Shown here piece after piece: positions 15,001 through 18,000 of a DNA stretch of 64,000 nucleotides. Source of the DNA: Escherichia coli (lineage in GTDB: Bacteria; Pseudomonadota; Gammaproteobacteria; Enterobacterales; Enterobacteriaceae); the NCBI RefSeq assembly GCF_002854065.1, contig NZ_CP024152.1. One strand, given 5' to 3'. The number at the start of each line of letters is the position of its first letter. Position 1 is the stretch's first letter. The position numbers were made by a program.

Positions 15001-18000
15001 TCAGTCCCTGTTCAAACGTCTGCATCTTGCTGGTATTAAGATGGCGGAATGTTGCCAGTACATTGTCCAGGGTGATTTCAGGACAGGTGTCGCTCATCAG
15101 CTGGCTGTTCCACTCATCACGCTGGCATGAACTCATGAAGGTGTACATGCCCGTATCTGTCATCAGGCGGTCCCAGATTTTCCGGTCGGCAAGACGGGTG
15201 ATATTCCTTTTCGCTTCTTCCGGCTTATCCATGCGACGAACGGAATCAGTCACGCAGTCTTCAAACCCGTAAAGAAAAATATCACCTGACGCATCGAGCA
15301 GAATCCTGCGCGCTGTCGCCAGGCATTCCATCGCCTGCATGAATAGTGCAATACCTTCGTTACGCTGCGCGATGATGCGGTCGATAGCCACAGACGGAAT
15401 AACATCTGTCGTGCCGGCAGTATTCAGGTCAGCAGTGGGTAAAGTCTGATTCATCACATTGTCTCCTCATCGTCACGACTGCCGGGTCAGCCAGGTCATT
15501 TCCCGGAGGAGCGAAGCTCCTTCTGCCGTCCGGGTCTTAGGGTATTTCCCCGCAGTGGACCTTTCCGACGGGGGACGCTCACCACGTCACGGGGCAGTTG
15601 TCCGGGGGCAGACGCAAAAGTTTTTGACGCCAGCGGCAAAAAGTTTTGTGGCTGGTACATCTCTCCCCTGGACGACTGAAACGGGATGTGGTCGTGTATG
15701 TACCCCCGGAAAGTCCGTCTGCGGAGAACAGGCCGCAGTGCGGCGGCAGACAGGCAAGAGACAGCTGCGCCATCAGGCGCAGTGGCCTTACACACCGTAA
15801 GGTGTGCAGGGAGCGCCGCATCCGGCGCGTCTGAAGAAAAACGACGGCACAACAATGGCATGTGGTGGTCACTGGCACACCACTCCCGCACAGGTGAAAA
15901 CAGAGAAAACCGCACGACATTTACAAACAAAAAAAGTGAAATTTCTTCACTTTTTTACACTTATTTATCGCGCTGATTTGGCAATTGTGATGATAAAATA
16001 AAGTGAAGTTTTTTCACTTTTTCAAAGGTGTTTTATGACCGGCTGGGAACTGCGAATCTGGCGAAAAAGCATGCTATGGTCACGCGAAAAAGCGGCCAGA
16101 GAATTTGGCGTGACGCAGAGAACATGGCACGCCTGGGAAAATGCGGAACAGGTGGACGTCACCGTCTGGAGGACCACTCAGGCACTTTCAGTCCGTGACC
16201 TGCTGCCTCACATGCAGGGGATGCGCAAGGCAGATATCATCAGGCGTCTGGAAAATGAACTGGGGGAAACGGCAGGGAATGTGTGAGCGTGATTCACAGC
16301 CTGGCAGAATGTCAGGCTACTGCTCATCAGGAAACAGCTTTTTCAGTTCTTCACCGGAAAGTCCGGTCGCCTCCTGAATCCGTTCCGGCGTCCAGCCCAT
16401 ATCCCGCAGCCGGCAGGCTATTTCCCGCGCCACTTCAAGAGCACCTTTTTCAAAACCTTTCTGTATAAGACGTTCTGCAATCGTCATGCTGTTTGCTCTG
16501 CTCCTGCTGACAAAAAAGCCCGGCATTTTGCCGGGCTGTGAGGTTCTCATCAGTGAATGATTTTCTTCAGTTCGTCATCGGAAAGTCCGGTAGCCTGCTT
16601 AATCTGCTCCGGCGTCATCCCCATTTTCTGAAGCTGGCACGCAATAGCCAGGGCTTTTTCAAGCGCACCTTCCATCCTGCCCTCCTGGCGACCTTTTTGC
16701 TCAAGACGTTCTGCGATAGTCATCAGTTTATCCTCATGCTGCGGCAGACGCTCAGCCAGCGCCCGCATAAATTCCGGTGATACAGAGTCCCCTGCGTTAA
16801 CGATGTAATGAATCAGAACACGCACCTGCTCGTCTGAAATTTCCACCATGACCTGCGGGAGTTTGTCCAGCAGCTCCATCATGTCACGATGGCGGATATG
16901 CTTCATCAGCAGCGTCAGTGCGGCCATCCGGCGATGGTTCATGATTTCATTGTCATCAACGACAGTGATATCAACCAGCGGAAACGGCTTTGTGTATATT
17001 TTAGCCGCAAGTGCCGGATTCTCAAAACAGTCCAGCCAGTTCATGCTGTACGGGTACGGGCTGCGCTCACCATGATAGAACAGCACAGGAATCACCAGTG
17101 GCAACGTTTTGTGCTGCTCCAGATGTCTCTGCATCGCCGCCACACTGTAACGTAACATGCGGAAAGGCATGTACAGATTTTCGGTGCTCTGGTGCTCGAT
17201 GAGCGTATAAACATAGCCGTCTTCACCCCCGGTGGTTTTCACACTCCAGAGGATATCGCTGGCGTACTGATGCAGGTCCGGCTCAACAAAGGTGGCGGGT
17301 TCCAGCTTCAGCGTGGACAGGTCGCACAACTGCCGGTACTCCGCCGGAAGATGCAGTTCCAGAAAATCTCTGGCGACGTCGGGATTCGCCAGGAACGACC
17401 GGAACGCGGCATCATGCGGCGTGGGCGTCGTGGTGGTTTTCTTCTTACTCACGGTTCCTCCTGGTGAGATGTCTGAACGTATCCTGCCGCCTGCACAGGC
17501 AGACGGCAAGGGTTAATCAGTGGCAGACCCGCTCAATTTCAAGCGCGCGGAGCAGGTGGCCCCATTCGCTGACTTTCATAGCGGGGATACGCACCCGCTT
17601 CTGCTCACTGCAGCGTCTGGCGATATGGCCGCTCATCGCCAGGACGTCCGGGTTAATCTCATCCTGTGCCAGCTCCTGACGTCTGAAGCGGGTATGGCGG
17701 TGCAGGGGTTTATTCTCCCGCAGGCACTCTTCACGCAGACGCTTTACATACTCGGCGGTTGCGAAGATAATTGATGGTCTCACAAATATTTCTCCTTATG
17801 TTGTTGATGACTGCCGCTCTTCCTGGCGGGGAAGTAACGGCGGAGAGAGGCAGGGTTTATCGCCCTGCCTTTTTTCATTTCGGACAGCGACGCAGTGCCA
17901 GCGCGAGCGCTTTCATCTTCCAGCCTTCCGGCGTGCGGTACATCACCTTCCAGTAGCCGTCGATGAACACATAATGGAAGCGCACCTCTTCAGTGCTTTC

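Follow-up and report, generated by a model that had tools for sequence, protein, structure and literature searches.

Aca2, the anti-CRISPR-associated HTH autorepressor of phage ZF40 and its relatives, acts through two inverted repeats, of which one covers the core promoter and the other lies downstream of it, and dampens expression in a newly entered cell (PMC6765145). Here, we describe a comparable arrangement in a 64,000-nucleotide stretch of Escherichia coli DNA (contig NZ_CP024152.1 of assembly GCF_002854065.1; hereafter the window), which belongs to an IncI-gamma/K1-type conjugative plasmid. Its leading region carries ygeA, a gene for an 83-amino-acid (aa) XRE-family helix-turn-helix (HTH) protein, preceded by two palindromes that we designate OP1 and OP2 (Table 1). 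With a probability that we put at about 0.68, YgeA is a dimeric autorepressor that acts on these two 21-bp palindromes at its own promoter and is transcribed only after the complementary strand of the incoming plasmid has been synthesized.

The closest solved relative of YgeA is Aca2, by the HTH only. An AlphaFold (AF2) model built with a 23-sequence alignment (predicted local distance difference test score 90.5) is a bundle of five helices, at residues 3-12, 17-24, 28-36 (the recognition helix), 42-60 and 65-81, with the HTH made up of helices 2-3. In Foldseek, Aca2, HipB, SinR and HigA2 match the N-terminal 46-53 residues at a root-mean-square deviation of ~2.1-2.4, with Aca2 structures (PDB 7ezy, 7vjo and 7b5j) at the top (template modelling (TM) score 0.58-0.61 on the query). 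Aca2 is also the best sequence match in the PDB (E 7.8e-4), over residues 1-38 only, where the two proteins share the pattern MTxxEL..RK......AA.E.G.V..R.W..WE. Both are regulators of mobile elements with two inverted repeats at their own promoter, and the putative autorepression by YgeA would, like that by Aca2, keep expression down on arrival in a new cell. The differences are nevertheless substantial. Aca2 has ~120 aa (115-125) compared to 83 aa here, and YgeA lacks the C-terminal dimerization domain of Aca2 (TM score on the target 0.41-0.45); the Aca2 operator reads TTCG-N6/8-CGAA (PMC6765145), whereas the motif here is AAGTGNA-N5-TNCACTT. Furthermore, the ygeA operon has no acr gene upstream, as the plus-strand open reading frames (ORFs) at this location are spurious and lie within a repeat, the ssi element described below. 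Finally, ygeA resides in a plasmid leading region, on a strand that cannot be read from single-stranded DNA (ssDNA).

Plasmids encode dimeric HTH repressors of their own. Members of the ArdK/KorA family (IncW, IncN and IncP) likewise operate by negative feedback with an overshoot after transfer (PMC9723621, PMC3937220), but their fold, a tri-helical HTH combined with an alpha-beta dimerization domain, is unrelated to that of YgeA. ArdK uses direct-repeat operators placed on the -35 box at five promoters, in contrast to the inverted repeats at a single promoter found for ygeA; on the complete 88.5-kb sister plasmid, ygeA-type operators do not occur at several leading or establishment promoters, the hallmark of the ArdK type. 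Type II antitoxins (HipB, HigA and the Xre type) come with an adjacent, co-transcribed toxin gene, and none was found at ygeA. The controller (C) proteins of restriction-modification systems, at ~80 aa, also belong to the XRE-type HTH proteins; paired palindromic operators precede their own gene, and the proteins serve as a delay timer when the element enters a naive cell. In those systems, however, the C-boxes are adjacent and form one compact operator, whereas operator centres in the ygeA family lie 55-67 bp apart, and the C gene precedes a restriction gene, none of which is found downstream of ygeA here.

By position, ygeA resembles Orf35 of pCTX-M3 and YggA of R64, which are also counter-oriented in the leading region and adjoin the origin of transfer (oriT). 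These proteins are not homologous to YgeA, have no recognized DNA-binding motif and target the nikA-tra promoter. Orf35 and Orf36 of pCTX-M3 were considered as YgeA homologues and rejected; Orf35 matches YggA instead. The ygeA family itself has very probably been catalogued, as gene family 22 in Supplementary Table 1 of Samuel et al. (Nature 2024), an assignment made by size, position and orientation. The table entry comprises 2333 leading-region-enriched HTH regulators at a median position of ORF 2 from oriT, in orientation -1 and beside the DUF4942 and Rpn families, which also flank ygeA; it is annotated 'aca6' from 3 hidden Markov model hits (accession WP_151333485.1), and the paper gives neither operators nor a function or analysis for it. 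We regard ygeA as an apparent XRE autorepressor, uncharacterized to date, in a conserved and unusual position of the MOBP leading region, which has very probably been catalogued before.

That the ygeA product is an XRE/Cro-type HTH protein, in line with the Cro/C1-like gene of 83 aa called in an earlier note on this DNA, is supported by the ORF, the AF2 fold and the HTH_3 matches of its family. While the window protein itself stays below the Pfam gathering cut-offs (HTH_31, 23.7 bits with a cut-off of 27; HTH_3, 16.5 bits with a cut-off of 23), 18 of 23 family members match HTH_3 (best E 3.7e-8) and 16 of 23 match HTH_31. NCBIfam returned sub-threshold matches only, to VC1465, MqsA, HipB and RstR. 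The family is modest in size, as judged from a profile search of representatives that gave 1084 matches at E <= 1e-3 and 83 at E <= 1e-10. Separately, the best match among these representatives, P0124 (190 aa), consists of two tandem YgeA-like domains and could act as a covalent dimer. Source annotations call the gene ygeA or 'helix-turn-helix transcriptional regulator', and it is present in ~1960 of the ~2040 plasmids that carry the surrounding 1.1-kb region. The name is shared with ygeA of the F plasmid, a T-strand-templated early gene made from Frpo1 (PMC9849209); an identity of the two genes was rejected, the F leading region having no tblastn match below E 0.1 and no operator.

The two palindromes are both perfect and read AAAGTGAA-N5-TTCACTTT. 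The earlier note had placed them at 15935-15957 and 16002-16024, 2-4 nt to the right of their true positions. As it had also proposed, they bracket the ygeA promoter, with a predicted extended -10 box, TGaTAAAAT, between them and ahead of the gene. Read in this way, transcription would start near 16005-16007, within OP2. An Rfam search of the ygeA/operator region returned nothing.

From this geometry, we propose that a YgeA dimer binds both OP1 and OP2. Occupied OP2 would block RNA polymerase, because it follows the -10 box directly and covers the predicted start site, the classical occlusion position, and the outcome would be negative autoregulation. OP1 would be an auxiliary site whose most likely role is to reinforce repression cooperatively. 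It resembles a copy of the OP2 module, and the similar flanks of OP1 and OP2 suggest that this module was duplicated in tandem. Alternatively, OP1 may support activation from about -63 or -53, a role we considered because the promoter has no -35 box.

To assess which of these elements are under selection, we compared the locus with L039, a pESI-like Salmonella plasmid whose YgeA protein is 86% identical to that of the window. The two genes are separated by a dS of 1.2, at which synonymous sites are saturated, with a dN/dS of 0.07. Against this background, the -10 region and the 5' untranslated region (UTR) are unchanged and both operators are largely retained, whereas identity in the OP1-OP2 spacer is at the random level (Table 1). 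There is no insertion or deletion, so the 67-bp spacing is preserved exactly. We conclude that the operators, the -10 box, their spacing and the leader are under selection and that a -35 box is not, a pattern that fits the proposed extended -10 motif.

The operator design recurs well beyond this pair. Searching plasmids with tblastn and scanning species-representative genomes once, we recovered YgeA homologues of 30-53% identity in at least 31 loci, and ~27 of these (35-50% protein identity) have an AAGTGNA-N5-TNCACTT palindrome directly upstream of the gene. The operator-bearing loci come from Escherichia, Salmonella, Citrobacter, Erwinia, Pantoea, Buttiauxella, Yersinia, Rahnella, Hafnia and Providencia. 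The proximal palindrome is centred about 24 bp (usually 22-26 bp) upstream of the ATG, and in most loci a TAnAAT-like hexamer directly precedes it. Many lineages carry the proximal operator only; many others also have a distal site. The two sites are mostly 55-57 bp apart, with distances of 64 bp in Hafnia (L033) and 67 bp in L039 and the IncI lineage, and in Buttiauxella plasmids three sites recur every ~56 bp.

Where the variable inner bases of the half-site (GTGAA, GTGCA or GTGAC) differ between loci, the change is symmetrical and affects the two arms and, within a locus, the two operators alike. The bases follow the type of recognition helix: W-H-A-W occurs with GTGAA or GTGTA (2/2 loci), K-[D/A/S/T/V]-Y with GTGCA (23/23) and K-R-Y with GTGAC (3/3). 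The conservation of the palindromes, their symmetrical co-variation, also with the recognition helix, and their constant position bear out the proposal of the earlier note that they are putative operators of ygeA, and suggest that YgeA binds them as a dimer. The same data bear on whether YgeA could instead regulate targets off the plasmid, on the host chromosome or on co-resident elements, with autoregulation as its sole plasmid-borne site. A strongly conserved protein with no second target on the plasmid speaks for such a role, but half-site specificity drifts with the protein between lineages, which is easier to reconcile with a private cis-operator than with a conserved host target, and we consider off-plasmid regulation very unlikely.

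The second component of our proposal concerns timing. Leading genes are transcribed from the incoming T-strand via hairpin promoters (PMC12672017, PMC9849209, PMC11541004), such as ssi1-3 described for IncI1 (PMC12672017). The window contains three copies of an ssi/Frpo-like element (~15500-15880, 18363-18856 and 24704-25200), each of which precedes a leading operon when read on the minus strand. The first copy, whose ssDNA fold has z = -8.5, lies directly ahead of ygeA. To the right of oriT, the genes for DUF4942, Rpn, ArdA, PsiA, PsiB, a ParB-methyltransferase-like protein, DUF905 and Ssb are all on the minus strand. We checked the strands against the Prokaryotic Genome Annotation Pipeline (PGAP) annotation of the sister plasmid, which is 99.7% identical over the 1.1-kb ygeA stretch. 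From oriT to IS26, its only plus-strand coding sequences are the YggA/MobC-like gene, ygeA and a 65-aa 'hypothetical', all others having the opposite orientation. The earlier note's statement that the remaining leading genes are on the minus strand therefore holds, with the YggA/MobC-like gene and the spurious 65-aa ORF as exceptions besides ygeA.

Because leading genes are transcribed from the T-strand by hairpin promoters, the T-strand here is the plus strand. This is also the sense strand of ygeA, so the gene should not be transcribed before the complementary strand is made, as the earlier note had reasoned. The argument for transcription from double-stranded DNA (dsDNA) only combines the published promoter mechanism with the orientation observed here. 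The counter-orientation is maintained in at least 16 diverged loci on MOBP plasmids with recognizable markers (relaxase, NikA/CopG, MobC/YggA, DUF945/DUF932/DUF4942, DUF5983, antirestriction genes, psiA/B, ParB-methyltransferase and ssb): in every one, the ygeA homologue is oriented against all leading genes and sits immediately behind an ssi-like repeat, 1.3-4.5 kb from oriT and the relaxase accessory gene, towards the leading side. In our model, ygeA would be silent on incoming ssDNA, would first be expressed, free of repressor, when this portion of the leading region has become double-stranded, and would then settle to a low, self-limited level after an overshoot, as described for plasmid negative-feedback repressors (PMC3937220). 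Deletion of pCTX-M3 orf35, the YggA homologue, raises nikA, nikB and traH transcripts, and its product is a putative repressor (PMC6112013); by extension, both plus-strand genes of the leading region may be regulators made from dsDNA only.

The same orientation logic, which is sound and conserved, led the earlier note to a wider proposal, namely that YgeA is a delayed repressor that turns off ardA, psiB, ssb and other early leading genes once the plasmid is double-stranded. There is a precedent in ArdK of R388, which represses five establishment promoters and produces a transcriptional overshoot on entry (PMC9723621, PMC3937220). Such a function calls for operators near leading-region promoters, and we found none. 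With up to 2 mismatches, OP1 and OP2 were the sole matches in the 64-kb window (shuffled sequences gave a mean of 0.02 matches per window, and 2 matches were reached in 0/100); at 3 mismatches, additional matches occurred at chance level only. On the complete 88.5-kb sister plasmid, the operator is likewise confined to the two sites at the ygeA promoter, and YgeA therefore does not directly repress ardA, psiB or ssb. Moreover, the ssDNA promoters of leading genes lose activity by themselves upon conversion to dsDNA (PMC12672017, PMC9849209), which already explains their shut-off. The shut-down of early genes thus lacks support, and we give it only a marginal chance.

The autoregulation of ygeA is supported, possibly with an additional effect confined to this intergenic region. 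In such a case, OP-bound YgeA or rightward transcription from the ygeA promoter would act as an insulator or silencer only here, once the region is double-stranded, against leftward transcription into ssi, the DUF4942 gene, oriT and nikAB, or against residual double-stranded activity of the adjacent ssi. Several features would suit such a role. The gene always lies directly behind an ssi/Frpo-like copy, and in Yersinia, Rahnella and Enterobacter plasmids (L012, L017 and L030) the distal operator has stayed on the ssi side even though a cassette of a RelE/HigB-like toxin and an HTH antitoxin now lies between it and the proximal operator (L012 5184-5849; a separate insertion on the other strand), leaving it 835 bp from the gene. 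In these plasmids, it adjoins a terminator-like hairpin with a T-run (GCCGCTT..AAGCGGC, minus strand), and L026, whose flanks have diverged, has retained the distal operator as well. In L016 (~10970-11055), a second copy of the ygeA promoter-operator (TAAGTGCAGTTTTTGCACTTT) lies beside another ssi copy as an orphan, with no ygeA ORF downstream. In the window, a minus-strand promoter-like site (GTGAAA-16-TATCAT) overlaps OP2, which contains its -35 box, and OP1 would be downstream of it. This site, however, is not conserved outside the IncI lineage when the sequences of other loci are compared; a terminator-like hairpin (16537-16517, minus strand; inside the 5' end of a 77-aa ORF described below) already ends the upstream Rpn operon before ygeA; and the many lineages with only the proximal operator argue against a general need for the distal site. 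On balance, we regard a local insulator as improbable, although less so than regulation of distant targets. A related and similarly doubtful view is that ygeA and its operators are a dedicated sensor of the single- to double-strand transition behind the first ssDNA promoter of MOBP plasmids. Synthesis of the complementary strand would be its sole trigger, and a roadblock, promoter occlusion or convergent transcription would then, by local action, shut off the oriT-proximal end of the leading region in the established plasmid.

Could ygeA be simply the orphan of a lost module, that is, a restriction-modification controller, an antitoxin or a partnerless Aca that regulates itself and has no current role in conjugation? 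It is monocistronic, with neither a partner gene nor a toxin ORF in its operon, and its fold neighbours include antitoxins as well as Aca2. Distant homologues on IncL/M (pOXA-48-like) plasmids (31-34% identity) have a single, different palindrome, AAAATGTTCAaataTGAACATTTT (L002 5454-5477; L005 4599-4622), and stand first in an operon with a gene annotated 'restriction endonuclease', which places them in a different context from the IncI/MOBP leading-region members. A remnant would not be expected to show a dN/dS of 0.07, a position and orientation fixed across plasmids with 35-50% protein identity, or near-universal retention among plasmids with the 1.1-kb region, and we therefore assign this scenario a very low likelihood.

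Several observations weigh against our preferred interpretation of YgeA as a self-regulating repressor made from dsDNA. No -35 box is recognizable in the ygeA promoter, and a consensus promoter scan left this plus-strand promoter uncalled, as the scanner requires a -35 box, returning only the minus-strand candidate that overlaps OP2. The sorting of recognition helices with half-sites, while being what direct readout predicts, is partly phylogenetic and confounded by shared ancestry. Operator spacings of 56 and 67 bp correspond to approximately n + 0.35 helical turns, with 64 bp in one lineage, so that in-phase looping is not obvious. The text of the early-conjugation RNA-seq paper on IncI1 (PMC12672017) contains no mention of ygeA. 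Lastly, pure self-regulation has no evident benefit despite the strong purifying selection, and a further target or role would be expected.

How leading-region expression ends, and how a plasmid passes from entry to establishment, are under active study, and current accounts rely on the loss of ssDNA promoter activity on conversion to dsDNA. A regulator made only after this conversion would be a natural and easily tested marker of the transition, and possibly an actor in it, and ygeA occurs in ~2000 IncI-type plasmids, with relatives elsewhere in Enterobacterales. The AAGTGNA-N5-TNCACTT motif and its lineage-specific variants are ready reagents for electrophoretic mobility shift, reporter and orthogonality experiments. 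If ygeA regulates only itself, it is an ordinary autorepressor and the gain is chiefly one of annotation; if it does act as a transition sensor, it would be a plasmid counterpart of the Aca control of phage anti-defence genes.

Table 1. Features of the ygeA locus and its surroundings in the window, with nucleotide identity to the pESI-like plasmid L039 where compared.
Feature	Position	Strand	Identity to L039	Remarks
nikB	10909-13608	-		
nikA	13619-13951	-		
oriT	~14000-14150			
YggA/MobC-like gene	14179-14520	+		Other counter-oriented gene, adjoining oriT
DUF4942 gene	14606-15457	-		
ssi/Frpo-like single-strand promoter element	15496-15880	+		Forms a long hairpin on the transferred (+) strand; leftward reading enters the DUF4942 gene
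OP1, distal operator (putative)	15933-15953	.	18/21	AAAGTGAAatttcTTCACTTT; 11-bp arms at 15930-15956; 67 bp centre-to-centre from OP2
OP1-OP2 spacer			12/37	Random level
Extended -10 box (predicted)	15991-15999	+	9/9	TGaTAAAAT; sequence reading
OP2, proximal operator (putative)	16000-16020	.	18/21	AAAGTGAAgttttTTCACTTT; centre 25 bp upstream of ATG; covers ~-5 to +15 of the predicted promoter
5' UTR			14/14	
Shine-Dalgarno-like AAGGTG	16025-16030	+		5 nt before ATG
ygeA	16035-16286	+		IncI-type; 83-aa XRE-family HTH protein; ORF, AF2 model, family HTH_3 matches
Rpn/YhgA-like nuclease gene	16550-17509	-		

Two annotated plus-strand ORFs near ygeA homologues, the 65-aa ORF of the window (15804-16001) and 'hyp95' (L004 5620-5907), were considered as partner genes of an acr-aca-like pair and rejected; they are repeated ssi/Frpo-like DNA. 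We consider both to be spurious mis-annotations, since the corresponding matches occur 2-4 times in each locus and contain in-frame stops as well as frame breaks.

The downstream neighbour of ygeA is convergent and is a tail fragment of Rpn. This 77-aa ORF (16317-16550, minus strand) lies directly downstream of the Rpn gene and repeats its C-terminal tail, as reflected in a direct repeat between the ORF and the tail of the gene (16339-16447 and 16563-16671, 76% identity); PGAP labels the equivalent ORF in L039 'Rpn family'. Elsewhere in the window, Rfam matches at the gathering threshold were obtained at 4100-4187, 4812-5029, 47569-47717 and 48570-48657: AgrB, sok antitoxin RNA, repZ pseudoknot and C4 antisense RNA.

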